Positions 2,591-28,589 of a stretch of DNA of 32,000 nt are shown piece by piece. The stretch spans positions 1,050,001 through 1,082,000 of the forward strand of contig NC_017080.1 of NCBI RefSeq assembly GCF_000284115.1, in the 5' to 3' direction. The DNA is from Phycisphaera mikurensis NBRC 102666 (GTDB lineage Bacteria > Planctomycetota > Phycisphaerae > Phycisphaerales > Phycisphaeraceae). Under the pieces are notes generated by a model. The model was not told the origin of the DNA. It was given only the letters and a program-made list of their open reading frames with translations, and did no database searches. A program made the position numbers and the translations under genes. Position 1 is the stretch's first letter. The number at the start of each line of letters is the position of its first letter.

Positions 2591-2665
2591 GGCCCGCTTC
2601 GCGGCGGCTCTTCCCGGACCCGGAGCCCGCCCGCGGGAGCTCGACGCCGCAGCGGCACATGCCAC

Positions 2666-2680
2666 GGAATGAGAAATTCC
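2666..2680. promoter_or_regulatory. Candidate operator, 15-bp palindrome GGAAT-gagaa-ATTCC in an AT-rich patch 64 nt upstream of the 2744 start
   Basis: Perfect 5-N5-5 inverted repeat inside the locally AT-rich stretch ggaatgagaaattccatcatctgatatcg, between the iclR gene and the next gene. The shape resembles the 15-bp palindromic boxes of IclR-type regulators. Related sites lie at 5513..5527 and 23946..23960. Confidence 0.35.
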
Positions 2681-2743
2681 ATCATCTGATATCGTCCCCG
2701 CGCCTCCCGCCCCGGATCTCCCGCTCTCCCCCCCGAATCGTCT

Positions 2744-3880: not shown

Positions 3881-3921
3881 AGCCTCGCCCCCGACGCCGC
3901 TCCCTCACCGCCACCTGGATC

Positions 3922-5463
3922 ATGGACGCAGACACCACCCTCCGCCGCCTCGGCCTCGCCGATCCGCACGCCGTCGCCCTCGCCGCGGACCGCCGGTCCG
4001 GCAGCGGTCAAACGCTCGCGGTCCGCGGCTGCATCGACGGCGCGACGCTCGCGGCGTTCCCGCAGGCGGTCGCCGCCGACGTGGACGAGGCGGTGCGGGT
4101 GGCGCAGGAGGCGTTCGAGACGCTCCGCTGCGTGCCCGCACCCCGCCGCGGCGAGCTGGTCCGCCGGCTGGGCAACAAGCTCCGCGAACGCAAGAGCGAC
4201 TTGGGCGCCGTCGTCACGCTCGAGGCCGGCAAGAGCGTGCAGGAAGCCGAGGGCGAGGTGCAGGAGATGATCGACGTGTGCGACTTCGCCGTTGGGCTCT
4301 CGCGGCAGCTCTACGGCCTGACCATCGCCACCGAGCGGCCGCACCACCGGATGATGGAGCAGTGGCACCCGCTCGGGCCGGTGGCGGTCATCACGGCCTT
4401 CAACTTCCCCGTGGCGGTGTGGGCGTGGAACGCGGCGCTGGCCCTGGTCTGCGGCGATCCCGTCGTCTGGAAGCCCAGCGAGAAGACGCCGCTGACGGCG
4501 CTGGCCTGCCACGGGATCCTCCAGGAGGTCATCGGCGAGAGCGGCGACCTGGGCGTGCCCGCCGGCGTCTCCGGCGTGCTCGTCGGCGGCCGGGAGGTGG
4601 GCGAGGCGATGGCGGATCACCACGGCTTCCCCCTGGTGAGCGCCACCGGCAGCGTCCGCATGGGCCGGGCCGTGGGCGCGGCGGTCGGCGCCCGCCTCGG
4701 ACGCTCGCTGCTGGAGCTCGGCGGCAACAACGCGATGATCGTGGCGCCCTCGGCCGACCCGGACCTCGCGCTGCGGGCGATCACCTTCTCGGCCTTCGGC
4801 ACGGCGGGCCAGCGCTGCACGACGATGCGCCGCCTGATCGTGCACGAGGAGGCGGCCGACGGGCTGCTGCCGAGGCTCAAGAAGGTTGCCTCGACGCTGC
4901 AGATCGGCGACCCGCGGGACGCGGGCGTGCTGCTGGGTCCGCTGATCGACGAGGCCGCACACCAAGCGATGCAGAGAGCCCTCGAGTGCGCCCGCGACGC
5001 CGGCGCCACCGTCACCGGCGGCGAGCGGGTGACCGAGGGCGTGCCCGGCGGCGTGTACGTGCGTCCCGCGATCGTGGAGGGGCTGGAAGCGGGCTCGCCG
5101 CTCATCGCCGAGGAGACCTTCGCCCCGATCCTGTACGTGCTGCCGTACCGAGAGCTCGACGAGGCGATCCGGATCCACAACGACGTCCCGCAGGGCCTGG
5201 CCTCGGCGATCTTCACCGCCGACGTGCGCGAAGCCGAACGCTTCCTCTCGGCTTCGGGCAGCGACTGCGGGATCGCCAACGTCAACATCGGCACCAGCGG
5301 CGCGGAGATCGGCGGGGCCTTCGGCGGCGAGAAGGACACCGGCGGCGGCCGCGAGTCCGGCTCGGACGCCTGGAAGAACTACATGCGGCGGGCGACCAAC
5401 ACGATCAACTTCGGCCACGACCTGCCGCTGGCGCAGGGCGTCAACTTCGAGGCGGCGCTGTAG
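3922..5463 (+). CDS. ALDH7-type aldehyde dehydrogenase (piperideine-6-carboxylate / alpha-aminoadipate semialdehyde dehydrogenase-like)
   Basis: Start chosen at ATG 3922 (MDADTTLRRLGL...), in frame within ORF 3109..5463. The upstream part of that ORF overlaps the previous gene in another frame. Motifs: EGEVQEMIDVCDFAVGLSRQLYG (an ALDH7 hallmark), FNFPVAVWAWN, WKPSEKTP, ELGGNNA, GTAGQRCTT (catalytic Cys), EETFAPIL. Confidence 0.9.
   Translation: MDADTTLRRLGLADPHAVALAADRRSGSGQTLAVRGCIDGATLAAFPQAVAADVDEAVRVAQEAFETLRCVPAPRRGELVRRLGNKLRERKSDLGAVVTLEAGKSVQEAEGEVQEMIDVCDFAVGLSRQLYGLTIATERPHHRMMEQWHPLGPVAVITAFNFPVAVWAWNAALALVCGDPVVWKPSEKTPLTALACHGILQEVIGESGDLGVPAGVSGVLVGGREVGEAMADHHGFPLVSATGSVRMGRAVGAAVGARLGRSLLELGGNNAMIVAPSADPDLALRAITFSAFGTAGQRCTTMRRLIVHEEAADGLLPRLKKVASTLQIGDPRDAGVLLGPLIDEAAHQAMQRALECARDAGATVTGGERVTEGVPGGVYVRPAIVEGLEAGSPLIAEETFAPILYVLPYRELDEAIRIHNDVPQGLASAIFTADVREAERFLSASGSDCGIANVNIGTSGAEIGGAFGGEKDTGGGRESGSDAWKNYMRRATNTINFGHDLPLAQGVNFEAAL
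3983..4028. repeat. 46-nt inverted-repeat element, copy 2, inside the ALDH coding region (codons ~21-36)
   Basis: Arms CCGCGGACCG (3983..3992) and CGGTCCGCGG (4019..4028), 26-nt spacer ccggtccggcagcggtcaaacgctcg. The spacer shares aaacgctcg next to the second arm with copy 1. Confidence 0.5.
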
Positions 5464-5512
5464 CGCGCGGCCGCGCCGCCCCTCGCGCAGGGTGGCACAG
5501 GATTCGCCATTC

Positions 5513-5527
5513 GGAACAAGACGTTCC
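5513..5527. promoter_or_regulatory. Candidate operator, 15-bp palindrome GGAAC-aagac-GTTCC about 69 nt upstream of the 5596 start
   Basis: Perfect 5-N5-5 inverted repeat in an AT-richer stretch (cattcggaacaagacgttccgttgtatgatg). Same architecture as 2666..2680. Confidence 0.3.
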
Positions 5528-5595
5528 GTTGTATGATGAAGCCGGATCCCCGCTCCTGCCCCGGAGGATCCTCTCACGCGATCCGCTTCAGGAGA

Positions 5596-6480
5596 ATGGC
5601 GATGCATCTCACCGGACTCAAGACCGGGTCGCGCGTCGTGGTGACCGGCGCGATGGGGTGGGTGGGCTCCCGGACCCTCGGCCGGCTCGCAACCGAGCAC
5701 GAGGTGAAGGGGCTGGACCTGGAGCCCGGCGCAGCGGGCGGCTGCGTGGTCGATGAGATCGACCTGATCGAGTACGAGGCGGTCCGGGAGGCGCTGGAGG
5801 GGGCGGAGGGCGTCGTGCACCTGGCGATCGCCTCGCGGCGGGCGCTCACGCACCTCGACGAGCACGACTACGCCGCGGTGGAGATCCAGTCCAACGTGCT
5901 CGGCACGCGGAACGTCTTCGAAGCCGCCGCGGAAGCCGGGGTGAAGCGGATGGTTTACTTCAGCTCGCTGACGATCCAGCTCGGCGAGCCCCAGCGTCGC
6001 TGGATCGGGCCGGGAGCGCCGCTGCGGCCGAGCAACCCGTACGCGGTGACCAAGCTGTACGGCGAGCAGCTGGCGTGGCTGTACGCCAACCAGGGCCGGC
6101 TCTCCACCGTCGCGTGGCGGCTCGGGCAGCCTTACCCGGTGGAGCACTTCTCGCTGGAGCACATGCGCGACCCCGAGGAGCGGGCCTGCGGCATCACCGC
6201 GGGCGACATCGCGCGGGGCATGCTCGCCGGCCTCTCCGCCGACCTCTCGGTGTTCGAGGCGCCCGAGCGGGAGGCCGGACCCGCGGAGGAGCTGCCCTGC
6301 GGCGGGCGGCCGGGCTTCACGCCGGGCTTCGCGGTGGCGAACCTGGTGTCCGCCTCGGACACCGGCGACGGGCACGGCTATGACCTGTCGGTGGCGCGGC
6401 GTCTGGGCTACGAGCCCGCCGAGTGCTTCACGGCGGAGGGCCCGGTCCCGGTGCAGAGCCTGCGGAAGGCGATTCGCTGA
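5596..6480 (+). CDS. NAD-dependent epimerase/dehydratase-family protein (extended SDR)
   Basis: VVVTGAMGWVGS glycine-rich motif and YAVTK catalytic Tyr/Lys. I prefer the start at ATG 5596 (MAMHLTG, preceded by aggaga) or 5602 over the ORF-track start 5533. The start is uncertain. Confidence 0.85.
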   Translation: MAMHLTGLKTGSRVVVTGAMGWVGSRTLGRLATEHEVKGLDLEPGAAGGCVVDEIDLIEYEAVREALEGAEGVVHLAIASRRALTHLDEHDYAAVEIQSNVLGTRNVFEAAAEAGVKRMVYFSSLTIQLGEPQRRWIGPGAPLRPSNPYAVTKLYGEQLAWLYANQGRLSTVAWRLGQPYPVEHFSLEHMRDPEERACGITAGDIARGMLAGLSADLSVFEAPEREAGPAEELPCGGRPGFTPGFAVANLVSASDTGDGHGYDLSVARRLGYEPAECFTAEGPVPVQSLRKAIR

Positions 6481-6676
6481 TGCGTCGTGGGGTCGTCCGC
6501 ATCCTTGGCCGGAGAAGCGGGGGTTTCCTTGTTCCAGGGTGGACCTGCCGATCGGTCGCGTGCGGCCCCCGGGCCGCGGCCGCGCGGATCCGGCCGGGGC
6601 CCGCGGTTGGCGGCGCTCCCGCGTCGGACCCTCTGCCGGCACGCGGCGGTCCCGCCGGCTCTGGCCTCGCTGCCGC

Positions 6677-6702
6677 CCCGCCCCGGCCGGGCGGGCCTTT
6701 CT
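6677..6702 (+). terminator. Possible terminator-like hairpin (CCCGCCC-cggcc-GGGCGGG followed by ccTTTCT)
   Basis: 7-bp GC stem (6677..6683 / 6689..6695), 5-nt loop and a short T-rich tail. It lies in the 242-bp gap between the epimerase-like gene and the lipoprotein gene. Confidence 0.25.
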
Positions 6703-6722
6703 GATCCCCGCTCCGCTCCGCC

Positions 6723-9023
6723 ATGATCGACTACTCCCGATGGACCGCCGCGCTTCTCGTGCCGCTTTCGCTTCTTGTCGGCTGCTCCGCCGCGGAGGCG
6801 CAGCCGGTCCCGCTGCCCGGCTTCGACCTCTCCAAGCCGGACGCCGCGTGGCACTACCACTTCCCGCAGGACGCGATGGCGTTCCGCGAGAGCGGCGGCC
6901 CGGGTGGCGGCGGCTACTACACGGCCACCGAGGGGGGAAACCTCTTCGAGGGCCCGCCGATGGAGCTCCGGAAGAACCGGCGCTACCGCGTATCGGCGAT
7001 GATCCGCTGCGACTTCGACCGCGCCGGCGGCGAGGTCAGCTTCTTCCTCAACGAGTGGACCTCGCCGGGGGAGCACGCCTTCGAGAGCGGCGACCACACG
7101 GTGCAGGTCCTGTACCAGCGGCCGGTGGGGCTGCCCGCCAGGACCCAGGGGTGGGTGCCCTTCGAAGCCGAGTTCGTGACAACGGGGTTCGCGGACACGA
7201 GAGCGTGGCGCTTCGGGATGAACCTCTACGGCACCGTGGGCGAGGGAGACAACCGCTTCGACCTCACCGACCTGCGCGTGGAGCTGCTTCCCGAGGACCC
7301 CGTCGACCCCTTCGGCCGGGGCGAGGGCGTCACCTTCGCCGGCGGCCCGGGGGAGCTGGGGATGCGGATCACCGGGGTGACCCGGGGGGACGATCGGATC
7401 GAGGTCGAGTCGACCGCCGGGCGCTACACGCTCGACCTGGCCGCCGGAACGCTCACGCTCCGGCAGCTCTTGGTCGAGGAGCGCGACGTGGCGGAGGTGG
7501 CGTTCGACGCGAGCCTTGCGGGCATGGAGGTGCTGCGGGAGGACGAGCATGTGGTGGTCCTGGCGAACGAGGACATGACCCTCGGCGTGCAGTGCGACGG
7601 GCTGGTGGCGATGACCGCGCAGCGGGCCGGCGGGGTCGGCGTGACGGTGACCAGCCGCGTCGGCAGCCCGGAGCGCGGCCAGTGGAACCGCATCCGCGAC
7701 GGGCACCTGATTGTCAAGGACCACCTCGGCGGCTTCAGCGTCCACCCGTGGGTCGTGCCCGGCAGCGGCGTCCTGCCGGCCGCCGAGCTGCTCGGCGAGG
7801 TCGATTTCGCAGCGTTTCGCACCGCCTACGGCGGGTCCGGGTCGGACATCTGGCAGATGCGCAGCGACGACCGGCTCAGCCACGAGCGGGCGGGTTGGCG
7901 AGCCCGGTGGCGCGTGAACGCCGGCGAGCGGCTCGGCCTCTGCGTCATGCCCACGCGGCCCTTCGACTGGCCTTCTTCCTTCGAGGACCACTACGAGCTG
8001 ATCGGCCACTGGAACGACACCCCCGAGACGATCCGCGAGAGCCCCGCGTCGATCTTCCTGCTCTGGGAGGACACGCCCCGCGCGTACGCCCTGAGCTGGG
8101 GGCGGATCCGGGCGGGCGACCCCGCCAAGACCCGGCGTCACGTCCGCGAGATCCAAGCGGCGGGCAAGAAGGTCACCAACTACATGAGCGCGTACTTCTA
8201 CGGGACGCGCGACGAAGCCTTCATCGAGGACGTCCGGCACTGGAAGGAGCGGTACGGGATCGACGGCGTCTACTCCGACGGCCTCCCCATCGACTGGGTC
8301 CTCGCGTACGAGCAGGTCCGCCAGATGCGCGAGATCTTCCCCGACGGGATCATCCACCTGCACGTGACCGGCATCTGGGCCAACGGCGGCCCGCCGCTGG
8401 CGACCTCGGACATCTTCTGCCCCTTCGTCGACACCTACGCCGACTCCATCGTGTCGGCCGAGAACCTGCAGGCCGGGCCGACCGCGGCGGACACGGACCC
8501 GAAGGCCTGGGTGTACCCGCGGCTGGTCGGCAGCCGCTTCCGCAGCAGCAACGTGCCGGTGGGGATCGTGAAGGCCAACACGCTGATCGACGTGAGCTTC
8601 TCGGAGATCACGAAGCTGAATCTGCTCGCCGGCGGCCGGGAGTGGGTCGACCAGATCCGGCCTGCGGAGTACGAAGCCGACTACCTGCCGATGCTCGCGG
8701 AGATCCGGCGGGCTTGGGAGGCCGACGGCGAGGACCCGCATTTCTTCGACCGCCACTACCTGCCGCTCGTGCAGCGGCTCACCGGCCTCCGCCACGGCCC
8801 GGCGGCGATGCCGCACGCCGACGAGAAGGATGGCCGCATCCACCTCCGCAGCGTCGATCCCGACGCCAGCGTTCACTACACGCTCGACGGCTCCGAGCCC
8901 ACGGCAGACTCGCCGCACGACCGCCAGCCGATCCGGCTCGGCACCGGCCAGGTGCTGCGGGCCGTCGCCATCGCCCCGGGCCTGGACCCGAGCCGGGTGC
9001 TGACGGTGCCGGCGGACCGGTAG
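6723..9023 (+). CDS. Secreted lipoprotein, uncharacterised glycosidase-like multi-domain protein (paralog A of a 3-member family)
   Basis: 766 aa. Signal peptide with lipobox LLVGC. N-terminal jelly-roll/CBM-like segment (LRKNRRYRVSAMIRCDF). Central VTFAGGPGELGM..LGVQCDGLVAM. TIM-barrel-like segment (LLWEDTP..YGIDGVYSDGLPIDW). LTGLRHGPAAMP. C-terminal CHB_HEX_C-like VHYTLDGSEPTADSP. Collinear with the 19225..21570 and 21615..23888 products. Confidence 0.85.
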   Translation: MIDYSRWTAALLVPLSLLVGCSAAEAQPVPLPGFDLSKPDAAWHYHFPQDAMAFRESGGPGGGGYYTATEGGNLFEGPPMELRKNRRYRVSAMIRCDFDRAGGEVSFFLNEWTSPGEHAFESGDHTVQVLYQRPVGLPARTQGWVPFEAEFVTTGFADTRAWRFGMNLYGTVGEGDNRFDLTDLRVELLPEDPVDPFGRGEGVTFAGGPGELGMRITGVTRGDDRIEVESTAGRYTLDLAAGTLTLRQLLVEERDVAEVAFDASLAGMEVLREDEHVVVLANEDMTLGVQCDGLVAMTAQRAGGVGVTVTSRVGSPERGQWNRIRDGHLIVKDHLGGFSVHPWVVPGSGVLPAAELLGEVDFAAFRTAYGGSGSDIWQMRSDDRLSHERAGWRARWRVNAGERLGLCVMPTRPFDWPSSFEDHYELIGHWNDTPETIRESPASIFLLWEDTPRAYALSWGRIRAGDPAKTRRHVREIQAAGKKVTNYMSAYFYGTRDEAFIEDVRHWKERYGIDGVYSDGLPIDWVLAYEQVRQMREIFPDGIIHLHVTGIWANGGPPLATSDIFCPFVDTYADSIVSAENLQAGPTAADTDPKAWVYPRLVGSRFRSSNVPVGIVKANTLIDVSFSEITKLNLLAGGREWVDQIRPAEYEADYLPMLAEIRRAWEADGEDPHFFDRHYLPLVQRLTGLRHGPAAMPHADEKDGRIHLRSVDPDASVHYTLDGSEPTADSPHDRQPIRLGTGQVLRAVAIAPGLDPSRVLTVPADR

Positions 9024-9049
9024 ACGCGGGCTCGGCCGTGCGGCGGGGC

Positions 9050-9084
9050 CGGCGGCTTCCCGGGCAGGGCCGCCGAAGCGGCCC
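9050..9084. terminator. GC-rich alternative stem-loops in a convergent intergenic gap
   Basis: CGGCGGC-ttcccgggcagg-GCCGCCG (9050..9075) or GGGCCGC-cgaa-GCGGCCC (9067..9084). They lie between the stop at 9023 (+) and the stop at 9122 (-). There is no U-tract. Confidence 0.25.
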
Positions 9085-9121
9085 GACCCGGTCGATGCCG
9101 GCTCGAAGCCCTGAGCGGGTT

Positions 9122-11068
9122 TCAGAATCCGAGCCGACCGGCTGATCGGTCCGGTGTCGCCGCTTCGACGTCGAAGCGTGCGGTCCAGGTGCCGCCGGCC
9201 CACATGGGGAAGTTGGTGCCCCAGAGGTTGTTGTGGACGTTGAACCAGAGGCCCGGCGCCGGTCCGGGAGGCCCGGGCGCCAGGTCCAGCAGCAGGCGCG
9301 GATCCGTCGTGAGTAGGGGCGTGTCCAGCGGGTGCACGCGGAGCGTGCGATCCGGCCAGGCGGCGTCGACCCAAGCGCCAACCGGGTGGAGGCGGCCGCC
9401 GTGCCGCACGACGCCGGCGAGGTCGACGGGCTCGCCGAGGATGTCAACGGTCACCCGCGGCGCCTTCTCGTCGGCCGCGACCAGGCCGATCCACGTCGCC
9501 TCGGGCCAGCGGTTCTCCGGCTTTTCGCGCAGTGTCACGGTGAGCCGGCCGCCGTCGACCGCGAGCTCCACCGCGGCCGGCGGTCGGGCCGCGGGGTGGT
9601 CGCCGCAGCCGAACGCGGCTTCCCCCGCCCGATCGAAGCGGACCTCCCACGCCCGCGCCGGCGCGTCGGCGTCGACGAGCTCCAGGCCCGGCTTGCTGAA
9701 GTCGGCGACGACCCAGGCCTGGTGCCAGTTCCGGTTGTACGCGGCGTTGAAGCGGGCGATGCTCTGGCTGTCGAAGACCTCGTACCGCACCACCACCGCC
9801 AGGCCGAGCGCCTGAAGGTCGATCGCGCCGCCACCCGGTGCCGGCCCATCGTTCAGCCCCTCGGGCAGCAGGGCGGCGGCGGCGTGCAGGTACGCCCGCT
9901 GCTCCTCCCAAGACGCCTCGAAGGAGGAGAAGCGGCGGCTGGGCGCGGGGCCGATCTCCGCGTTCATCGCGGCCAGCTCCGCGGGGACCGCCTCGTCGGG
10001 CACGGCGTCCGCCGCCCGGGCGGCGTCGAAGTCGGCGGGGCGGTAGCTGCGGTAGTCGGCCAGGTGGATCTTCTCGTCCATCCCGCGGGTGTGCTCGGCG
10101 GCGAGCAGCAGCAGCTCGTCGAAAGCCTGTCGGTGGACCGGCGGCACGCGGTCACGCCGCCGCAGCAGACCGCGGTGGCGGGCCAGGTGCGGCGGATCGG
10201 TGGCGACGCCGTGCGACCAGGAATCGCCGATCTCGGCGGTGACCACCGGCAGCGTGCTCCGCTCGCCGCGGAGCATCGCGGCGAGGTCGTCGAGGCCGCC
10301 GGCCGCCAGCTGGGCGTTCGGGAACCGCCGCTGCAGCGCCGCGGCCGCCGCGGCCACGCCGGCGGCGTCGGGGGCGGGCTGGTTGTCGCCCGCGTGGACC
10401 AGCACGAAGGCCTCGCTTCCATCCGCCGAGACCACCTCGCGGGCGTAGTCGTCGGCGTAGACCACGGTGAGCTCCCGGCTTCGGCTGTCTCGCCAGCGGA
10501 AGCGTGCCGGCACCTCGGGCAGCGGCGTGCCGGGGTTGACGCCCAGGTGCAGCAGCTCGATGCCGAACCCGGCGAGCGGGCCCACGAGGCCGCGCGGGTG
10601 GCCGGGGACGTCGGTCATCTTCGCGGCGATCGTGCGGCGGCCGAAGCGCGCGTCCAGCCGGCGGGAGACACCAACGGCGGCCTCCAGCAGCGGGACGTCG
10701 AGCAGGGCGGTGTGGGTGGTGAAGGGCAACGCGTGCCAGACGATGCCGCCGGCGGCGATGGCTTCCTCGAGGCGGCGTCGGTTCGGGTTCGCCATCCCGC
10801 GGGACGGATCGAGCGCCCGCTCGATGAGCCAGGATCCGGTGGTCCAGCACATGGGCAGCACGCCGTCCCGCGTCCGCTCCACGGTGTCCAGCACCGAGGG
10901 AACGAGCCGCTGGAGGTAGTGGTCGACGACGCGGTGTGCGTGGTCGGTGAAGCCGATGTCGAGGTGGGTCTTGAAGCCGACCACGAGGCGCCGGACCGCC
11001 GGGAAGGTGCGGCGGTCGTCCGCGGCGCGCTCGGCCTCGGTGACGAACTGAGCGGTGGAGGCGGTCAT
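9122..11068 (-). CDS. Cytoplasmic GH38-like / DUF5054-like glycoside hydrolase candidate
   Basis: 648 aa with no signal peptide. The N-terminal VVGFKTHLDIGFTD, the later MTDVPGH and the C-terminal NNLWGTNFPMW resemble my recollection of the DUF5054 family (GH38 N-terminal fold). The family call is from memory, not a search. Confidence 0.6.
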   Translation of the reverse strand: MTASTAQFVTEAERAADDRRTFPAVRRLVVGFKTHLDIGFTDHAHRVVDHYLQRLVPSVLDTVERTRDGVLPMCWTTGSWLIERALDPSRGMANPNRRRLEEAIAAGGIVWHALPFTTHTALLDVPLLEAAVGVSRRLDARFGRRTIAAKMTDVPGHPRGLVGPLAGFGIELLHLGVNPGTPLPEVPARFRWRDSRSRELTVVYADDYAREVVSADGSEAFVLVHAGDNQPAPDAAGVAAAAAALQRRFPNAQLAAGGLDDLAAMLRGERSTLPVVTAEIGDSWSHGVATDPPHLARHRGLLRRRDRVPPVHRQAFDELLLLAAEHTRGMDEKIHLADYRSYRPADFDAARAADAVPDEAVPAELAAMNAEIGPAPSRRFSSFEASWEEQRAYLHAAAALLPEGLNDGPAPGGGAIDLQALGLAVVVRYEVFDSQSIARFNAAYNRNWHQAWVVADFSKPGLELVDADAPARAWEVRFDRAGEAAFGCGDHPAARPPAAVELAVDGGRLTVTLREKPENRWPEATWIGLVAADEKAPRVTVDILGEPVDLAGVVRHGGRLHPVGAWVDAAWPDRTLRVHPLDTPLLTTDPRLLLDLAPGPPGPAPGLWFNVHNNLWGTNFPMWAGGTWTARFDVEAATPDRSAGRLGF

Positions 11069-11114: not shown

Positions 11115-12062
11115 TCAGGCTTCGAGGAGCACCCCGACGTGGGCGGCCACGCCGCCGGCGAGGCCTTCGAGGTCGTAGCCGCCTTCGAGGATCGACACCA
11201 CCTTCCCGCCGCAGAGCCGATCGGCGGCGTCGAGCAGCAGGCGCGTCATCTGCCGGAAGCCGTCGTCGGTCACGCGCATCGGCGCCAGCGGGTCGCGGAC
11301 CGACGCGTCGAAGCCGGCGGCCAGCACCAGCGCCTCGGGCCGGAAGGCTTCCAGCGCGGGGATCACCCGCTCGCGGAACGCGTGGAGGTAGTCGGCGTCG
11401 CCGGCGCCCGGCGGCATGCACACGTTGACGGTCGCGCCCTCTCCGGAACCCTCACCGGTCTCGTGCTCGAAGCCGGTGCCGGGGTACAGGACCGCGGGGT
11501 TGCCGTGGATGCTCAGCGCCAGCACGTCGCCACGCCCGGCCATCAGGTGCTGGGTGCCGTTTCCGTGGTGCACGTCGAAGTCGACCACGGCGACGCGGTC
11601 CAGGCCCAGGTCGGTGGTCAGCAGGTCGGCGGCGAAGGCGGCGTTGGCGTAGAGGCAGTAGCCCATGGATCGGTCGGCCTCGGCGTGGTGGCCCGGCGGG
11701 CGGGTGGCGCAGAAGGCGTTGTTCAGCTCGCCCCGCCCGACCGCCTCGGTCACGCGGAGGATCCCGCCGAGCGCGAGGCGGGCGACGTCGGCGCTGACCC
11801 GGCCGATGCACGAATCGATGTCGTCGATGATCGGCTCGCCTCCGGCGCAGGCGGCGTCGAGCCGGTCGAGGTAGGCCGGCGTGTGCAGCCGCCCGAGCCG
11901 GTGCCGCCCGGCGGTCGCGAAGTACAGCGACTCCGTGCGCTGGGCGAGTCCGTCCGCGCGGAGGCGGTCCATGACCGCCCGCAGTCGGTCAGGCCGCTCC
12001 GGATGCGTCGGGCCGGTGTCGTGCAGGAGCAAGCGGTCGTCGTAGATCAGGCCGGTGCTCAC
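11115..12062 (-). CDS. Histone deacetylase-family (arginase/deacetylase fold) amidohydrolase, AcuC/acetylpolyamine-amidohydrolase-like
   Basis: GTG start at 12062 ((V/M)STGLIYDDRLLLHDTG..HPERPDR). Motifs RPPGHHA, VVDFDVHHGNGTQ, AAGFDA and EGGY. The GTG overlaps the upstream gene's TGA (GTGA at 12059..12062). Confidence 0.9.
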   Translation of the reverse strand: MSTGLIYDDRLLLHDTGPTHPERPDRLRAVMDRLRADGLAQRTESLYFATAGRHRLGRLHTPAYLDRLDAACAGGEPIIDDIDSCIGRVSADVARLALGGILRVTEAVGRGELNNAFCATRPPGHHAEADRSMGYCLYANAAFAADLLTTDLGLDRVAVVDFDVHHGNGTQHLMAGRGDVLALSIHGNPAVLYPGTGFEHETGEGSGEGATVNVCMPPGAGDADYLHAFRERVIPALEAFRPEALVLAAGFDASVRDPLAPMRVTDDGFRQMTRLLLDAADRLCGGKVVSILEGGYDLEGLAGGVAAHVGVLLEA

Positions 12063-13930
12063 CGCGACGCCGTCCGCCGCGGAGCTTCGGCCTCCCAGAG
12101 CCGCGCGGGCCCGTCGGTGAAGTCCCAGGCCTGGGCGTCGTCGAACCAGACCCGCGAGCCCGGCTCGCCGGTCGCCGACAGCAGCAGCACGGCGGAGCTC
12201 ACCTGCTCGGGCGCGGTCACGACGGCGAAGGCGCGCCGCCAGCCCTCGGCGTCGGCCTCCGCCTCGGCCTCGAAGGCGACGCCGACGTCCTCGCCGCCCA
12301 TCTCGAAGGCCTCGCCGGGGTGCCGCCAGCGGATGGTCATCTGCGGGACGGTGTCGCCTTCGGTCTTCACGAAGGCGCGGACCAGCAGCGTGCGCTGCGG
12401 CGTGATCGGCAGGTTCATGCCGAAGCAGCCGCCCCGGGCGATGCCGTCCATCCGCAGCGACGCGTTGTCGCCGCGGCCCACGGCGCGGTCGTGATGGAAG
12501 CTGCCGGGGTCGTCGTCGTACTTCCACGACCACCAGCCGCCGGGCAGGCCGCCGCTGTCCCAGCCCTCGCCGTCGACGGCGGCGGCGCTCTCCGCCGGCT
12601 GCATGTCGTGCGCGCCGATCATCGCTTCGTCGGCGAAGGCACCCTCGATCGCGGGCAGGTGTTCGGCCAGGCGTGCGTGGGGGCTCCTCGCCCAATCCAG
12701 CGCGGCGTCGAAGTGCCGGAACCTCTCGTCCCACCGCGGTTGCGTGATCCGATCTCCGGCGTAGCCCACCGGCCGGTCCGCCTCCGGGCCCGTGGACGCG
12801 CGGTCGAAGAAAACCCCGTCTTCCGCCCAGATCCACACCACGCCGTCGCTGGTGGAGAGGGCGGTCAGCAGGTTGCGGTAGAGCAGGTCGGACGCCGACT
12901 TCCCGAACTTCGAGATGCCGTACTGCGTCCCCTCCTCGTTCAGGTACGCGTCGAGGTATACGCCGTGCGACCCGCGGACGTGCGCGTAGAAGCGCCGTCG
13001 AAGGTCGGGCGTCAGCGCCGCCGCGAGGTTGGCGCGCACCCGGACGGCGTTGCGTGGGAACGACCCCGGCGAGCCGAACATGTAGGCGTGCTCGTTGCCT
13101 TCCCAGACGGTCGTCCGCTCGTGCATGCCGGCGAGCATGCCCTCGAAGAACGCGAGGAACAGGCCGGTGTTGTCGCCGGCGCGGACGGGATCCTCGGCGG
13201 CACCCAGCCCAGGCTTGCAGTAGTCGCTGATCCAGAACATGAAGATCTCGGCGTCCGGCCAGGCTTCGCCCAGCGTGCGGGCCCAGCTCTCGCCGCGCTC
13301 GCGGACCTCCGCCGCGGTGGTGGCGAAGTCCTCGTCGGTGTCGAGCGTGCTGTGCTGCCAGAGGTGCGGGCCGTACTGCTCCGCGTCGAAGTTGATGCCG
13401 CTGGTGTTGCCCGTCGCCCGGCCGAACTCCGCGAGCAGCCGGGTGTTGTGCAGCACGGTGGCCCAGGCGTCGTCATCGAACCAGTCGAAGTTCGCGGGCG
13501 TCACCCACGCCATGAGCTGGTTGTCGGTGAGGTTTCGGAACTCCGCCGACCGCATCGCGGCCAGCGGCTCCTCGAACCACGCCGGGTCCCAGCGGGTCCG
13601 CCCGTCGAAGAGCCGCATGCTGGTGCGGTACTCGCTGCTGAGGTTCTCCCGCTCGTCATCGGGGTCGGGGAACTTGACGTAGTACCCCGTGCCGTCGAGC
13701 CCGCTGCGGTCCATGGCCTCCCAGTGGCGGCCGATGTACCGGGCGTGCGGCGCGTTGTAGCCCAGCTGGACGATGCGCCGATCGGCGCCGCGGACCGCGG
13801 GATAGATCGGGCCCAGCGCGGCCATCTGCGCGTTGCTGACCGGGGCGGGCTCGGCCGGAGCTTGGGCTCCGGCCTGGAGCGGGACGACGCCGAGCATGGC
13901 GTAGAGAAGAAGCTTCAGGCGGTCAGGCAT
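12059..13930 (-). CDS. Secreted uncharacterised protein with a C-terminal jelly-roll/CBM-like domain (family 2, member 1)
   Basis: 623 aa with signal peptide MPDRLKLLLYAMLGVVPLQAGAQA. The N-terminal ~400 aa are collinear with the 24022..25935 product (WVTPANFDWFDDDAWATVLHNTRLLAEF vs WCTAEAGWDWFDDDHWEAALANMRQLAEL; FFEGMLAGMHERTTVWEGNEHAY vs FLAGMLSEAHEGLEVFDGNEPAY). The C-terminal ~170 aa look like a galactose-binding-like beta-sandwich. Confidence 0.85.
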   Translation of the reverse strand: MPDRLKLLLYAMLGVVPLQAGAQAPAEPAPVSNAQMAALGPIYPAVRGADRRIVQLGYNAPHARYIGRHWEAMDRSGLDGTGYYVKFPDPDDERENLSSEYRTSMRLFDGRTRWDPAWFEEPLAAMRSAEFRNLTDNQLMAWVTPANFDWFDDDAWATVLHNTRLLAEFGRATGNTSGINFDAEQYGPHLWQHSTLDTDEDFATTAAEVRERGESWARTLGEAWPDAEIFMFWISDYCKPGLGAAEDPVRAGDNTGLFLAFFEGMLAGMHERTTVWEGNEHAYMFGSPGSFPRNAVRVRANLAAALTPDLRRRFYAHVRGSHGVYLDAYLNEEGTQYGISKFGKSASDLLYRNLLTALSTSDGVVWIWAEDGVFFDRASTGPEADRPVGYAGDRITQPRWDERFRHFDAALDWARSPHARLAEHLPAIEGAFADEAMIGAHDMQPAESAAAVDGEGWDSGGLPGGWWSWKYDDDPGSFHHDRAVGRGDNASLRMDGIARGGCFGMNLPITPQRTLLVRAFVKTEGDTVPQMTIRWRHPGEAFEMGGEDVGVAFEAEAEADAEGWRRAFAVVTAPEQVSSAVLLLSATGEPGSRVWFDDAQAWDFTDGPARLWEAEAPRRTASR

Positions 13931-14059: not shown

Positions 14060-15124
14060 TCATGGGCGGGCTTCGCGGCGAGCGAGCGTGACCCTTGATC
14101 CGGTGCGGATGCTCTCCGCCTCCGCCTCCACGAGTCGGACGGAGGCGGCGGCGTCGCGGAGCGTGACGCGGTCGGCGGGCCTCCCGCGGCGGATGCAGTC
14201 CAAGAAGTAGCGAAGCTGCGGGCCGTAGCCCGTTCCGCCATCGACCGCCGGGATCGGTGCGGCGCTCGCACCATCCCGGGTGATGCACCGGAAGGCGGGA
14301 TCACGCCCCAGGTCGAAGTCGAGGGTCGCGTGCTCCAGGTTGACGCAGTAGCGCATCTCAAAGCCGAAGCCCGACGCCATGGACCAGCACCCCTCGGCGA
14401 TCACCACCGGCCCGCCCGCGTAGTGGTATCGGGTCGTGACGTGATCGATCTCGTCGGTGTCGCGGGCGTAGCCGACGCTCTCCACCGCGTCCGGCTCGCC
14501 GAAGGTCCACCGGACGAAGTCGGCGTCGTGCACGTGGAGATCGAGCAGCGCCCCGCCGTTCGCGGATCCGTCGGCGTAGAAGGGGCCTTGGGGGTGTGAG
14601 GTGACCCGCCGGAAGGTGGCGGCCAGGACGCGGCCATACCGGCCGTCCCGCACCGCCTGCCGCAGCTCGACCCATCCGGGCCAGAAGCGCATGCACATGC
14701 CGGCCATGGACCGCGTCGGCGACCGATCCGCGGCGTCGGCCATGCGGTCGGCGGCCGCGGCGTCGCGGGCGAGCGGCTTCTCGATCAGCACGTGCCGCCC
14801 GGCGGCCATTGCCGCAAGCCCGAAGCGCTCGTGCAGCGGCGTGGGGAGGCAGATGTCGGTGACGTCGAGGTCCGCCTCCGAGATCAGCTCGTCGGCGTCT
14901 ACGTACCGCGCGGCGTCGGCCGGGACGACGCCGCCGCCCTGACCCTCGATGTTGCCGCCACCCCCTCCGCCCCCACCATCTCCGGCACGGCAGGACAGCC
15001 GCCGCGGGTCCCGGTCGGCCACCGCGGCCACGACGGCATCCGGGTACGCGCTGTAGGCCTGCAGGTGGGTCAGACCCATCGAGCCGAGGCCGACGACGCC
15101 GATCCGCAGGGGGCGATCGCTCAT
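14060..15124 (-). CDS. Gfo/Idh/MocA-family NAD(P)-dependent oxidoreductase
   Basis: Start at ATG 15124 (MSDRPLRIGVVGLGSMG), overlapping the upstream TGA (ATGA at 15121..15124). It has the EKPLA motif and a C-terminal alpha/beta domain. It also has an unusual Gly-rich insert, AGDGGGGGGGGNIEGQGGG. Confidence 0.9.
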   Translation of the reverse strand: MSDRPLRIGVVGLGSMGLTHLQAYSAYPDAVVAAVADRDPRRLSCRAGDGGGGGGGGNIEGQGGGVVPADAARYVDADELISEADLDVTDICLPTPLHERFGLAAMAAGRHVLIEKPLARDAAAADRMADAADRSPTRSMAGMCMRFWPGWVELRQAVRDGRYGRVLAATFRRVTSHPQGPFYADGSANGGALLDLHVHDADFVRWTFGEPDAVESVGYARDTDEIDHVTTRYHYAGGPVVIAEGCWSMASGFGFEMRYCVNLEHATLDFDLGRDPAFRCITRDGASAAPIPAVDGGTGYGPQLRYFLDCIRRGRPADRVTLRDAAASVRLVEAEAESIRTGSRVTLARREARP

Positions 15125-16041
15125 CGCGCACCCGCCATCCGCTGCGGGGTCGTCGCGTCCGGGCCCTGGGCCTCCGGATGGATCAGGTCCCGCAGCGATG
15201 CCGCCGTGTCGGCGAGCAGGCCCGGTCGCCACGGCATGATCTCCGCGGTCACGGTCCGGTCGTACCCGATGCTCCGGAGCGCGGCGACGCTTTCCACCAA
15301 CGGGACGTCGCCCCGGGTCAGCTCACGGAAGGCGTACTGGCCCTCGCCGAACGACTCGGCGTAATCCTTCACGTGGACGCGTCGGATGCGGTGGTCCAGG
15401 ATCTCGATCCAGTGCGGCGGGTGCTGGTGGAGGCCCGGGAGGTTTCCGACGTCGAGGTACACGCCCAGCCGCTCGCTGCCGAAGCCGTCGACGAACGCCG
15501 CGAGCTCCAGCGGCGAGTAGAAGAGCCCGTTCCAGACGTTCTCGAGGCAGAGATCGATCCCGAGACGCTCGGCGGTGTCCAGCAGCCGGGCGACGTTCTC
15601 GCGCACCCGCCTCCAGGCATGGTCGTACCGGACCCGTTCGCCCGGGCTGATCGGGCTGGTCGTGACGCCCGGGACGTAGAGCAGCGCCTCGGCCCCGAGG
15701 TCGGCGGCACGCCGCAACGCCTCCTCGTGCTCCGCCAGGGAGGCCGCGCGCACGTCGGCGTCTTCGGACACCGGATTGGACGTCCAGCTCATGCCCGACG
15801 CCGCGGTCTCGCAGACGAGCCCGGCGTCGTCGATCGCCTGCCGGATCGCGGCGCACCGCCGGGCATCGTCGTCGGTGCTGAACACGCCGCGCTCTCCGGG
15901 CCGTCCGATGCACATCTCGATCCCGTCGAAGCCGGCCTCCGCAACCGCGGCCAGGGTGGTCTCGAGCGGATCCGCATCGGCCGGGGCGTCCGGCGGAGAG
16001 ATTCCGTGTCGGGTCGACCAGAAGGAGATGCAGCTGAGCAT
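15121..16041 (-). CDS. Sugar phosphate isomerase/epimerase, xylose isomerase-like TIM barrel
   Basis: 306 aa with GFDGIEM, LCLEN, LDVGN and RVHVKD motif spacing typical of the AP-endonuclease-2/xylose-isomerase-like TIM-barrel family. Confidence 0.9.
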   Translation of the reverse strand: MLSCISFWSTRHGISPPDAPADADPLETTLAAVAEAGFDGIEMCIGRPGERGVFSTDDDARRCAAIRQAIDDAGLVCETAASGMSWTSNPVSEDADVRAASLAEHEEALRRAADLGAEALLYVPGVTTSPISPGERVRYDHAWRRVRENVARLLDTAERLGIDLCLENVWNGLFYSPLELAAFVDGFGSERLGVYLDVGNLPGLHQHPPHWIEILDHRIRRVHVKDYAESFGEGQYAFRELTRGDVPLVESVAALRSIGYDRTVTAEIMPWRPGLLADTAASLRDLIHPEAQGPDATTPQRMAGAR

Positions 16042-16092: not shown

Positions 16093-19000
16093 CTACCGCC
16101 CGGCAACGCGGCGGAACCATCGGGTCTCGCCGACGGGCAGATCGAAGGTGAAATCGGTTGCGTCCTCGGCCACGACGGCGTCGGTGGTGAGGTCGACGAG
16201 GTCGGCGGGTTCGTCCCAGCGAAGGGTTTTCGGCTGGTCGTTCATGCTGTGCACGACGACCATGCGGTTCCCGGCGTAGGTGGCGTCGTTCTCGGGGCCG
16301 ACGGGGGTGACGCCGGCCTCGGCGGCGAGGTTGCGGAGCAGGCGGGGCGAGAGGCCGCCGGGCGCGGCGAGGTAGACGCCGGTCCAGTCGGCGTGCCGCC
16401 GGACCGCGGCGGCGACGCGGCCGTCCTCGTAGCGGGCCAGCGCGACGCCGCCGGCCTCCGCGAGTGCGTCCTCCGGGAGGTGGATCATCGGCCCGCGGGT
16501 CGGGGTGTTGATGCGGTCGACGTGCTCGGCGAGCGGGTCGCTCCCGGTCGCGGCGTATCGGTGCCACGTCTCGGTTCCCGGCTCGAGCTCGACGGTGAGG
16601 CCGGTCATGCGGCGGACGGTCTCGGTCAGCCCGAGCGGCCCCGAGACGCCGGCGGCGTTGACGACGACGACCACGCGGCCGCCGCGCTGCAGCTCCTCCA
16701 CCGCGGCCACCTGCGCCTCGTCGATCGTGTTCGCGCTGAGGAACACGAGCAGCGGGTACTCCGGCAGGTCCGCGTGGGCGACGTCCGGCAGGAGGTACGG
16801 GTCGTAGCCCAGCCCCGACATCGCCAGCGGGATCCGCGGGAAGTTGTGGCTGTGCTGGAAGTGGTACAGGCCGAAGTACCGCTCCTGGGTCATGTGGTCG
16901 ATCGACCGCTCGTCGGCGAAGGTGGCGACGGCGGGGCGATCGGCGTCGACGGCCGGGTCTTCGGCAATCCGCTGCGCCACCCGCTGAGCCTCGGCCATGA
17001 AGTCGACGTACAGCGGGTCGGACCAGGCGGTGCCGGAGAGGGCGTAGTACCACGCGCCGCCGCCGAGCGCGAGGGCCTGGCCCCACTCGCGGCGCACCTG
17101 ATGGGGCGGGTCCTCGGGGTCCTTGAAGGCGGAGACGTATTCGCGGGAGTCCACGGCGTCGGGGCTGAGCCACGAAAGCGGCGTGCGGTGGTCGGCCTCG
17201 GCGATGAACAGCTTGTCGCGGAGGCGGAAGCTGCCGGCGGCGGAGCTGATCGCGCCGGTGAAGCCGGGGTCGCGCCAGAAGCCGTAGTCGCCGATGCTGA
17301 CCAGCCCGTCGATGTGCGGCGAGTCGAGCAGGGTCCGGGTCGCCCAGTGGTCGAGGTTGTGGGCGTGGGTGACGTCCGACCAGTAGGTGGTGGTGATCGA
17401 CTCGCGGCCGAAGCCGGCGTCGAAGGCCGCGGCGAGGTGGATGGCGGTCTCGGCCTTCCGCTCCGATTGGAAGCGGTTGCTGTCGATGATGCGGCGGTGG
17501 CGTCCATCGGCGGGGTCGAGGAACCAGTTCGCCGGCGTCGGCGGCTGGATGTCCGAGCGGCCGAGCTGGTCTGCGGTGGCGAGCGAGGCGTCGGGGTCGC
17601 CCCAGGCTTCCTGCAGCCCGGCGTCGTCGCCGTACTCGCGGCCGAGCCAATCGCGGAAGGCGGCCAGGTGGCCGGGCGAGCGGTCGCGCTCGTCCTGGGC
17701 GTCGAGCGTGGGCAGCGACTGCCCGTCGGCCCCGATGGCGAGGTGGATGCCGATCACCCGCTTGCCCAGGTCGGACCCGGCGAGGTGCTCGCCCAGCCGC
17801 CGGAGCACCTCGCCGCACGCCTCGCGGTAGGCCGCGGCGGCGTAGCTGAACGCGAAGACCTCGTCGTCGGCCTTGTCGGCGACGCCCTTGCCGCTGTGGC
17901 TCCAGCCGACCACCCGGTCGCCGTCGGGCGACGTGTAGACCGCGTCGGGGTGGTCGTGGTCGAAGTCGTAGTAGGTGTCGGCCCCGATGTTCAGCCGGAG
18001 CAGCGCGTCGGGGCTGTGGCGGAGCTGGACGAGGATGCGGCGGTCGAGCTCGGCGAAGTCGATGTCGCCGTCGCCCCGCCAGACCGGCACGCCGACACCG
18101 TCCCGCCCGCCGGTGTCCTTCGCGTCGCCCAGCGATAGCGTGATCTGCTGGAGCCGCATCCCGGCCTCGCGGGCGAGGCGGGCGCCGAGCTGCGGGTACC
18201 CCGCGTCCCAGAAGTAGAAGTTGGGGTTGTAGAAGAGGGCGCCCGCCGGTTCGCCGTCGATCAGGATCACCGGCTGACCGCCGCGTCGCTCGATCGCCAC
18301 CGCCGCCGGCTCCTCGGCCGCGAGCATCTCGCGGACCTGTGCCTCCGACATCACCGGTGGCTCGTCGGCCGGGCCCAGATCGGCCGGGAGCTGCGCCAGC
18401 GGCTCCGGGGCCTCGCGCAGAGACAGCTCCTTCCACCGCAGGTCGATCGGGGCGCCGGCGGCGCCGAGGCGGACGACGGCCGCTTCGGCGTTCGGGCCGG
18501 TGGTGAAGCGGACGGGCGTGTAGGCCCAACCGCCGCTGCCGGTGTGCTGCACCTGCATGAAGTGCTCGGGCGTGTGGAAGTCGCTGGGTGCGTCGCCGTT
18601 CTGCACCTCGATGTCCAAAGAGGCCGAAGCCCCGAACTCGAAGCCGCGGACCTGGTAGCGGGCGCGGAAGAGGTAGTCGGTGTCGGGCTGGAGCGGGATC
18701 GGCTCGGCGGACGCGGCGGTGGCGTCGCCGCCGTGGGCGAGCACCCGCGTCGACATGATTTCGGGTCCGACGCGACGGACGCGGGCATCGAACTCGGACT
18801 CGGGGCTGAGACCAAAGGGCAGCGGCGTGGTGCCCGCATCCGGCAGGAGCTCCGCCGCGGCGGGCTCGATGCGGAGCTGGGTATTGCGGGCCCAGGGCAG
18901 CCGCAGCGGGTCGTTCGGCGTGCCGGTGCCGGGGGGCAGGATGCGTGGCGGGTGGGAGGTGGAGACGAGCCACCGCTCGGCGGTGGCGTCGTGCCGGGGC

Positions 19001-19167
19001 GGGGTGACGACGACCGGATCACCCGGAGCCGCGCCCGCGACGGGGTCCCCCGCCGCGGTGAAGCTGACCGATCCGGACGCGGCCGCATCCTCGGCGGCCA
19101 CGGGCGCGGCCGCGACGAGCGCAGCGAGCAGGAGGGATCGGCGAGAGGGGCAAGAGCGGGTCGGCAT
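16093..19167 (-). CDS. Secreted large glycoside-hydrolase-like protein (N-terminal jelly-roll module plus GH42-like barrel and trimerisation-like domain)
   Basis: 1024 aa. The N-terminus MPTRSCPSRRSLLLAALVAAAPVAA is Tat-like. A CBM-like segment follows (PLQPDTDYLFRARYQV). The central segment, including AFRDWLGREYGDDAGLQEAWGDPDASL, resembles the GH42 beta-galactosidase pattern. The later EYPLLVFLSANTIDEAQVAAVEELQRGGRVVVVV resembles the GH42 trimerisation (GATase1-like) domain. I did not recognise a canonical NE acid/base motif. Confidence 0.6.
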   Translation of the reverse strand: MPTRSCPSRRSLLLAALVAAAPVAAEDAAASGSVSFTAAGDPVAGAAPGDPVVVTPPRHDATAERWLVSTSHPPRILPPGTGTPNDPLRLPWARNTQLRIEPAAAELLPDAGTTPLPFGLSPESEFDARVRRVGPEIMSTRVLAHGGDATAASAEPIPLQPDTDYLFRARYQVRGFEFGASASLDIEVQNGDAPSDFHTPEHFMQVQHTGSGGWAYTPVRFTTGPNAEAAVVRLGAAGAPIDLRWKELSLREAPEPLAQLPADLGPADEPPVMSEAQVREMLAAEEPAAVAIERRGGQPVILIDGEPAGALFYNPNFYFWDAGYPQLGARLAREAGMRLQQITLSLGDAKDTGGRDGVGVPVWRGDGDIDFAELDRRILVQLRHSPDALLRLNIGADTYYDFDHDHPDAVYTSPDGDRVVGWSHSGKGVADKADDEVFAFSYAAAAYREACGEVLRRLGEHLAGSDLGKRVIGIHLAIGADGQSLPTLDAQDERDRSPGHLAAFRDWLGREYGDDAGLQEAWGDPDASLATADQLGRSDIQPPTPANWFLDPADGRHRRIIDSNRFQSERKAETAIHLAAAFDAGFGRESITTTYWSDVTHAHNLDHWATRTLLDSPHIDGLVSIGDYGFWRDPGFTGAISSAAGSFRLRDKLFIAEADHRTPLSWLSPDAVDSREYVSAFKDPEDPPHQVRREWGQALALGGGAWYYALSGTAWSDPLYVDFMAEAQRVAQRIAEDPAVDADRPAVATFADERSIDHMTQERYFGLYHFQHSHNFPRIPLAMSGLGYDPYLLPDVAHADLPEYPLLVFLSANTIDEAQVAAVEELQRGGRVVVVVNAAGVSGPLGLTETVRRMTGLTVELEPGTETWHRYAATGSDPLAEHVDRINTPTRGPMIHLPEDALAEAGGVALARYEDGRVAAAVRRHADWTGVYLAAPGGLSPRLLRNLAAEAGVTPVGPENDATYAGNRMVVVHSMNDQPKTLRWDEPADLVDLTTDAVVAEDATDFTFDLPVGETRWFRRVAGR

Positions 19168-28408: not shown

Positions 28409-28589
28409 GGCGAACCTTTCAAGGGGGAGCGGGAGACTCGGTGGGGGAGGTGCAGGCGAAGGGAGCGGGCGAGGCGGTGGGCCGCGGGCTCCGGGTGGCT
28501 TCCGGGATGTTCTGATTGACGGAAGGACTTCTACAGGATAACCGAACACTCACGCGGCCCAAAGCCCAGTGCGAGAAAGGCGTCGCGCC

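Follow-up and report, generated by a model that had tools for sequence, protein, structure and literature searches.

A recurrent pairing of a Gfo/Idh/MocA dehydrogenase with a xylose-isomerase-like TIM barrel in Phycisphaera mikurensis and its possible role in keto-sugar epimerisation

What reaction is carried out by a Gfo/Idh/MocA dehydrogenase and a xylose-isomerase-like TIM barrel whose genes overlap on the minus strand of Phycisphaera mikurensis NBRC 102666, within the 32,000-nucleotide stretch analysed here (NC_017080.1, positions 1,050,001 to 1,082,000; hereafter the window)? The initial annotation of this DNA saw in the two genes a possible oxidative glycoside-cleavage module working for a glycosidase-like island. 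Our comparison of related loci identifies the pair as a conserved, self-contained and uncharacterised orthologous module that recurs in several phyla. We favour, at slightly under even odds (a probability of about 0.45), a cytoplasmic two-enzyme module that combines oxidation by nicotinamide adenine dinucleotide (NAD+) with keto-sugar epimerisation or isomerisation of an imported sugar, likely an amino sugar; the figure is a joint one that covers the oxidation and epimerisation module together with the amino-sugar substrate class.

The TIM-barrel gene is an open reading frame (ORF) at 15121..16041 on the minus strand that begins with ATG and encodes a protein of 306 residues (P0002). It is followed on the same strand by the dehydrogenase ORF at 14060..15124, which encodes 354 residues (P0001). 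Direct reading of the sequence bears out the coupling and the overlap coordinates given for this junction in the initial annotation, with the P0001 ATG (15124..15122) overlapping the P0002 TGA (15123..15121) in an ATGA tetranucleotide at 15121..15124 of the minus strand (gcgcgATGAgcg). The G+C content of the window is 72% and codon-position G+C was used to tell genuine genes from shadow ORFs. Values of 0.87–0.91 at third codon positions support both chosen starts, and the N-termini of homologues agree with them (consensus MIKxISYWS for the TIM barrel and MIxVGVVGLG for the dehydrogenase). A longer GTG start for P0001 at 15232 was rejected, as homologue N-termini give it no support. Four-nucleotide ATGA overlaps are very common operon junctions, so the coupling alone carries little weight; a second overlap of four nucleotides (GTGA at 12062..12059) is found in the same array. 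The ATGA overlap is local and is not kept in related loci, where the median distance between alignment ends is 70 nucleotides (range −10 to 237). In itself the overlap is not unusual, and the non-random part is the adjacency of the TIM-barrel and Gfo genes.

This adjacency extends well outside the genus. In a large protein collection the TIM barrel has more than 750 relatives and the dehydrogenase over 1,300. The top matches share only 55–59% identity, and the relatives come mostly from Phycisphaerae, Pirellulales and Kiritimatiellae and bear generic names such as ‘hexulose-6-phosphate isomerase / L-ribulose-5-phosphate 3-epimerase’ and ‘inositol 2-dehydrogenase-like’. Eighty related loci encoding a TIM-barrel relative (44–57% identity) were compared, six of which have too little downstream DNA, leaving 74 informative. 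A Gfo orthologue (38–54% identity) lies directly downstream of the TIM-barrel gene, on the same strand, in 45 of the 74; it lies elsewhere within 10 kb in another seven and is missing from 22, in some of which a non-orthologous Gfo gene comes next after the TIM-barrel gene. The loci span Planctomycetota, Verrucomicrobiota/Kiritimatiellota, Lentisphaerota, Armatimonadota and Gammaproteobacteria, and one further TIM-barrel locus, from a metagenome-assembled genome (MAG) of Hydrogenedentota, has no Gfo orthologue in the locus. All-against-all clustering of the loci leaves the TIM barrel and the Gfo protein as the only broadly common genes. No homologue of the window's island genes was found in the 80 loci (tblastn, E<1e-10), and the pair is not specific to the surrounding island. 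Within the phylum the TIM-barrel gene is accessory and patchy, since a relative at 50% identity or above occurs in 2 of 200 sampled genomes and close relatives of this genome lack it.

Both proteins belong to the superfamilies proposed for them at the outset. P0002 matches PF01261 (AP_endonuc_2) with E 4e-40 (138 bits against a cut-off of 31), and P0001 matches PF01408 (E 4e-17), PF22725 (E 5e-16) and PF02894 (E 4e-12), all over gathering scores. Alignments of 36 homologues each, at 50–59% identity, were used to locate conserved positions. P0002 keeps E42, E167, D197, H223 and E267, the last four invariant in the family, and these residues probably make up the Glu-Asp-His-Glu site, for metal and base, that is usual in the superfamily. 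Invariant positions in P0001 comprise G12/G14/G17, D37, E115-K116-P117, D195 and H199. An acidic residue at the end of the second β strand of a Rossmann fold favours NAD over NADP, and D37 at this position suggests that the cofactor of P0001 is NAD rather than NADP. No signal peptide was recognised in either protein and both are predicted to be cytoplasmic: the first barrel strand of P0002 begins at residue 2, and the N-terminus of P0001 enters the Rossmann strand directly (RIGVVGLGSMG). The AlphaFold2 models have predicted local distance difference test (pLDDT) scores of 90 for P0002 and 90.7 for P0001, with residues 50–55 of the latter below 50. The Rossmann domain of P0001 carries a glycine-rich insert (G8 plus GQGGG) at residues ~47–66 (window 14930–14989), which is predicted to be disordered.

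Comparison with characterised families was made through curated hidden Markov model (HMM) cut-offs and rankings of profiles against the PDB. P0002 scores far under the cut-offs of the UlaE-type equivalogs (37.7, 37.4 and 23.8 bits for NF009689, NF009688 and TIGR00542, with cut-offs of 200, 317 and 272), the fructoselysine 3-epimerase model (34 bits, cut-off 305), the psicose 3-epimerase model NF051856 (31.3 bits, cut-off 300), IolE TIGR04379 (21.3 bits, cut-off 290) and IolO NF041099 (18.8 bits, cut-off 300). The best NCBIfam match of P0001 is IolG TIGR04380 (E 3e-29), at 101.8 bits, or 90 bits in the genome search, under a cut-off of 355. An archaeal UDP-GlcNAc 3-dehydrogenase model gives 98 bits (cut-off 450), LgdA NF052479 gives 68.6 bits over residues 76–217 only (cut-off 650), and the BT_2159 and BT_2158 glycoside or disaccharide 3-dehydrogenase models (NF058563 and NF058561) give 15.6 and 14.6 bits (cut-offs 650 and 750). 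By membership, the pair appears to lie outside the inositol, levoglucosan and Bacteroides-type 3-keto-glycoside families. The close clustering with inositol enzymes that had been named beforehand as the contrary outcome was not found, a result that speaks for the initial annotation, the scores being 102 of 355 bits for IolG, 21 of 290 for IolE and 19 of 300 for IolO. The proposed pairing of oxidation with elimination or isomerisation holds as a general type of gene pair; it does not hold as membership of the LgdA (69 of 650 bits) or BT_2158/BT_2159 (~15 bits of 650–750) families, and the nearest relatives of the TIM barrel are epimerases.

Solved structures point the same way for the TIM barrel. 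The family profile finds MJ1311 best (E 3e-14), then D-psicose/D-tagatose 3-epimerases and UlaE, with IolI 1i60 (E 8e-4, 21.5 bits) and TM_0416 (E 1e-3) as weak matches; no eliminase chain and no LgdB, DgpB or DgpC chain was found at E≤0.01. By these profiles the nearest solved relatives appear to be ketose 3-epimerases, MJ1311 and UlaE, not eliminases. The P0002 model superposes on UlaE with Z 30.0 (root mean square deviation, rmsd, 2.4 over 270 residues), Art22 with Z 29 and ketose 3-epimerases with Z 27–28, and on xylose isomerase at ~Z 26 and the AtHYD glycal hydratase 8ro4 with Z 26.1 (rmsd 3.2 over 271 residues); UlaE and the ketose 3-epimerases are 19–26% identical to P0002. The dehydrogenase profile finds TM_0414 best (E 2e-31, full length), then 8w9s, LgdA, GFOR, inositol dehydrogenase and DgpA (E 5e-23). 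The top Foldseek match of P0001 is LgdA, with a template modelling (TM) score of 0.81 at 21% identity, which therefore reflects a shared fold and not LgdA membership. GenD2, KanD2, TM_0414, GFOR, 1,5-anhydrofructose reductase and WlbA stand with LgdA as fold neighbours near TM 0.8 (19–25% identity). The predicted folds of both proteins are generic; they confirm the superfamilies and leave the reaction undecided.

The gene neighbourhood of the pair is more suggestive of amino-sugar conversion than of glycoside cleavage. Pfam tallies of the flanks in the 80 loci give a mixed picture. Of 108 immediate neighbours, 13 are further Gfo genes; SSF symporters, esterases and a second TIM barrel also occur, as do regulators of the LacI, AraC and GntR types, PIG-L deacetylases, ABC transporters, members of the glucosamine-6-phosphate isomerase family, ROK proteins and glycoside hydrolase family 20 (GH20). 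The sole coherent pathway theme to recur is amino-sugar catabolism, which we treat as a lead, not a rule. Its clearest form is found in two Oceanospirillaceae MAG loci, L073 (8012–12662) and L075, where the order is nagB, nagA, TIM barrel and Gfo, then a NagD-like HAD phosphatase. Both nag assignments are over cut-off (nagB 299 bits, cut-off 237; nagA 342 bits, cut-off 226), the divergent side carries a GntR/UTRA regulator, an ABC transporter and a GH20 hexosaminidase, and no sugar kinase was found in these loci. The TIM-barrel and Gfo genes presumably take the place held by nagC in the E. coli nagBACD operon. Two further loci, L065 and L071, carry GH20 together with the same binding protein and a distant NagA. 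In four Phycisphaeraceae loci (L035, L041, L053 and L089) a NagB–PIG-L fusion that is 64–67% identical to the one in this genome lies beside the pair, with ROK and SSF genes, the order in L035 being TIM barrel, Gfo and fusion. In all, GH20 is present in 6 loci and ROK in 7. In the locus whose Gfo protein is closest to the two copies in this genome, L031 of an uncultured Phycisphaera sp. (2238–10652), the pair comes directly after two GH114 genes and is followed by genes for a DUF4874/DUF4832 protein and for an SSF symporter; GH114-like genes are also present in L048 and L079. We take GH114 to be the endo-alpha-1,4-polygalactosaminidase family. Nothing relevant was found in the literature on such Gfo and TIM-barrel pairing in nag or N-acetylgalactosamine (GalNAc) contexts.

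The P. mikurensis genome provides its own link to NagB. It holds 24 Gfo-type genes and about 10 PF01261 genes. A search at E≤1e-5 with P0002 matched only P0002 itself, which is single-copy at that level of similarity. P0001 has a paralogue, 57% identical, at C1:1505298-1506311, directly upstream of a 642-residue NagB–PIG-L fusion (C1:1505298-1508449 region) that is the only NagB of the genome (PRK02122, 973 bits, cut-off 384; TIGR00502, 239 bits, over cut-off). As neither NagA (TIGR00221) nor AgaS (TIGR02815) was found in this 99.97%-complete genome, the PIG-L domain of the fusion may replace NagA. Genes for a GNAT acetyltransferase and for a heparinase II/III-like protein border the paralogue and the fusion. 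In a genome of the same order (G136) the Gfo gene adjoins the fusion and the TIM-barrel gene stands alone on another contig. In a maximum-likelihood tree of Gfo proteins, obtained as a ‘quick’ IQ-TREE result, P0001 and its paralogue form a sister pair (SH-like approximate likelihood-ratio test, SH-aLRT, 94) that groups with L031 (SH-aLRT 97). The branch of the window copy is three times as long as that of the paralogue (0.85 versus 0.26), and the window copy is marked as deviant in composition, which, together with the glycine-rich insert, suggests accelerated evolution of P0001 after duplication. A second, unrelated pair of TIM-barrel and Gfo genes is located at C1:987839-989681, ~62 kb upstream of the window, where its neighbours are an AraC regulator gene and a gene with a faint likeness to GH88.

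Our favoured reading, oxidation followed by keto-sugar epimerisation, can be set out as a working mechanism. The Gfo enzyme would use NAD+ to oxidise a secondary hydroxyl of the imported sugar to a keto group, possibly at C3 in view of the closest structural neighbours of P0001, which mostly act there. The TIM barrel, with a divalent metal held by its Glu-Asp-His-Glu set, would then remove and return a proton at the carbon beside the keto group to give an epimer or isomer, and the same or a neighbouring dehydrogenase would reduce the product, making the conversion redox-neutral overall. We infer the site of oxidation, epimerisation over elimination and the substrate. The substrate would most likely be an amino sugar or N-acetylhexosamine, for example one converted from the galacto- to the gluco-configuration, with the product feeding a NagB-type deaminase; this galacto-to-gluco idea derives from the amino-sugar context and from the fact that no Aga pathway was found. 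The cytoplasmic HDAC-fold deacetylase of the operon and the GH114 neighbours in L031 are consistent with it. In its most specific form, which we consider rather improbable, the pair would be a nucleotide- and phosphate-independent hexosamine epimerase: galactosamine or GalNAc (or another N-acetylhexosamine that is not gluco-configured) would be oxidised at C3, inverted at C4 (or C2) and re-reduced at C3 by the same NAD(H), giving glucosamine or N-acetylglucosamine for NagB or NagB–PIG-L, whose deaminase step would be the sole amino-sugar route open to these bacteria. Such a pair would constitute an undescribed route that funnels galactosamine-rich glycans (polygalactosamine or Pel-like, mucin-type or algal GalNAc) into central metabolism without the Aga pathway.

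The best worked precedent, by analogy, is probably the YcjS/YcjR pair of E. coli, annotated in NC_000913 as D-glucoside 3-dehydrogenase and 3-dehydro-D-guloside 4-epimerase. Like the P. mikurensis pair, it combines a Gfo/Idh/MocA protein with a PF01261 protein, both cytoplasmic, with the epimerase gene directly upstream of the Gfo gene, and YcjR shares the positions E42, E167, H223 and E267 of P0002. The similarity is remote and too distant for orthology: BLASTP gives 27% identity for YcjS and P0001 (E 1e-16) and 26% over 140 residues for YcjR and P0002 (E 1e-4), the overall range for the latter being 21–26%. The ycj operon also differs in having a YcjQ-type second dehydrogenase, a phosphorylase and a mutase, and its context is kojibiose or glucosylglycerate rather than amino sugars. 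Ketose 3-epimerases, UlaE and MJ1311 provide the best profile and structural matches of P0002 and have the Glu-Asp-His-Glu metal site, whereas ketose 3-epimerases and UlaE function without a partner dehydrogenase and P0002 scores far under their curated cut-offs.

Several observations weigh against the favoured module. The orthologous family of the pair is uncharacterised and none of its members carries a functional name, and identity to YcjR and YcjS is only 21–27%. The Glu-Asp-His-Glu site fails to separate epimerases from the AL1/BT1 lyases, which also have a Glu base, and the superfamily fold matches of P0002 are bunched at Z 26–30, so that fold leaves function undecided. The surroundings of the pair vary in most loci, and include esterases, a second TIM barrel, other Gfo genes and LacI or AraC regulators. 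NagA, NagB, GH20 or GH114 lie within 10 kb in only ~15 of the 80 loci, a share that we judge to be several-fold above that of a random 20-kb stretch, as a rough estimate that was not computed and in which related genomes are not independent. Among the 21 loci of the phylum with a NagB–PIG-L fusion, that of this genome included, a Gfo orthologue lies within 1.5 kb in two.

The same two superfamilies are known to cleave glycosides by oxidation, and a cytoplasmic two-protein analogue of AL/BT, LgdA/LgdB or GH4/GH109 chemistry is an unlikely reading of the pair. Here the Gfo enzyme would oxidise C3 of an imported glycoside, the TIM barrel would act as a 3-keto-glycoside 1,2-lyase and/or glycal hydratase, and the dehydrogenase would reduce the 3-keto sugar. 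In the AL/BT alternative glycosidase system (BT2156-2159), a Gfo oxidoreductase works with a metal-dependent TIM-barrel ‘sugar phosphate isomerase’ on 3-keto sugars, and a catalytic Glu of the AL1/BT1 barrels abstracts the proton (10.1101/2024.03.25.586180). These ‘sugar phosphate isomerases’ act as 3-keto-beta-glucoside lyases. P0002 has candidate Glu bases (E167 and E267) and counts AtHYD 8ro4 among its structural neighbours, and the operon contains putative glycosidases and a cytoplasmic DUF5054 protein. LgdA/LgdB and DgpA/DgpBC resemble the pair in that LgdA is the top fold match, and DgpA a profile match, of P0001, yet the LgdA cut-off is missed, as are those for BT_2158/BT_2159, and neither LgdB, DgpB and DgpC nor any eliminase is among the TIM-barrel profile matches. 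In the AtOGE and CGE (DgpBC, CarBC) beta-eliminases a His of the fifth strand is a ligand of the Mn2+, and the catalytic His lies two residues further on (His132 and His134 in AtOGE; PMC10628242). The strand end of P0002 presumed to be equivalent reads Glu167-Asn168-Val169, which is invariant; the comparison is by motif, with strand equivalence deduced from it. The AL proteins bear signals of the secretion, lipoprotein or Tat kind (a secretion signal in AL1 and a twin-arginine export signal in the periplasmic AL3), and the AL/BT clusters include DUF1080 and two Gfo genes (10.1101/2024.03.25.586180). P0001 and P0002, in contrast, have no signal peptide, and a DUF1080-type partner is not among the common neighbour families. 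A cytoplasmic variant does exist in the Gram-positive cluster P2B11, where two oxidoreductases flanked by two ‘isomerases’, with no transporter or regulator nearby, cleave thioglucuronides (10.1101/2024.03.25.586180). The nag operons that contain the pair already have a GH20 hydrolase. Comparative context gives no support to the suggestion in the initial annotation of a role for the pair in the glycosidase-like island or in non-hydrolytic glycoside cleavage: the pair is without island genes in all 80 loci, both proteins are predicted to be cytoplasmic, and what recurs near the pair are regulators, sugar transporters and amino-sugar enzymes of the NagA/NagB type.

Cyclitol catabolism, in which an IolG-like dehydrogenase would act with an IolI-, IolE- or IolO-like inosose isomerase, dehydratase or epimerase, draws on the best named HMM (IolG) and the best solved relative (TM_0414) of P0001, on weak TIM-profile matches to IolI and TM_0416, and on the frequency of SSF symporters among the neighbours. 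TM_0414 presumably lies with TM_0416 in the inositol operon of Thermotoga maritima. This reading is very improbable, as the IolG, IolE and IolO equivalog cut-offs are missed by a factor of at least 3, none of the 24 Gfo paralogues in this genome reaches the IolG cut-off, and no IolC-, IolD- or IolB-type families are among the top neighbour families. Quite unlikely, too, is a pair that shares a pathway and no keto intermediate, the TIM barrel interconverting an aldose and a ketose, or two ketoses, and the Gfo protein being a keto-sugar reductase (similar to 1,5-anhydrofructose reductase) or a C1 aldose dehydrogenase. Ketose 3-epimerases do take free ketoses without prior oxidation, and P0001 is close, in structure and in sequence, to 1,5-anhydrofructose reductase, aldose-aldose oxidoreductase and GFOR. 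However, the strict order of TIM barrel then Gfo across phyla, and the frequent second Gfo and second TIM-barrel gene, fit the shuttling of a keto intermediate better, and a C1-oxidised product would sit poorly with the link to NagB.

Among the sugar-metabolism genes of Planctomycetota, Verrucomicrobiota and marine Gammaproteobacteria that lack an assigned role, pairs of Gfo and TIM-barrel genes rank with the most abundant. Were the amino-sugar epimerisation shunt to hold, it would fill a gap in the use of galactosamine-type sugars by polysaccharide degraders that lack the Aga pathway, and would correct the blanket annotations as hexulose-6-phosphate isomerase or L-ribulose-5-phosphate 3-epimerase and as inositol 2-dehydrogenase-like proteins. 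If the pair were merely another keto-sugar epimerase pair, the result would be ordinary.

In the window, the pair sits within a run of eight minus-strand genes that extends from ~23.9 kb down to 9.1 kb. The gene upstream (16093..19167, −) encodes an exported protein of 1024 residues with a Tat-like N-terminus and a faint GH42-like stretch (PF02449, E 7e-5), and ends 51 nucleotides before the TIM-barrel start. Downstream, an exported 623-residue protein of unknown family (12059..13930, −) begins 129 nucleotides past the dehydrogenase stop. It is followed by an HDAC-fold deacetylase without a signal peptide (11115..12062, −; PF00850, E 8.5e-86), whose GTG start overlaps the preceding stop, and by the last gene of the array, which encodes a 648-residue DUF5054 protein, also without a signal peptide (9122..11068, −; PF16477, E 6e-29). 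The intergenic gaps around the pair are thus 51, −4, 129, −4 and 46 nucleotides. As these gaps are short and scans around the pair detected no promoter-like or terminator-like site, a single transcript for the array is likely; the 129-nucleotide gap after the dehydrogenase gene has no unusually stable predicted fold (z = 0.81). Six neighbours have Sec, Tat or lipoprotein-like N-termini, and the operon places four predicted cytoplasmic enzymes (the pair, the HDAC-fold deacetylase and the DUF5054 protein) beside six exported proteins. The glycosidase-like character of the island is weakly documented by sequence, through the GH42 match, DUF5054, CHB_HEX_C tails and faint CBM9 and GHL15 matches, and three large island proteins (16093..19167, 6723-9020 and 9122..11068) have no relative in the PDB at E≤1 by sequence. 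Further along the window, a minus-strand gene at 27530-28549 encodes a protein with an N-terminal methylation motif and DUF1559, a pseudopilin-like family typical of Planctomycetota, which recurs near the pair in 8 related loci.

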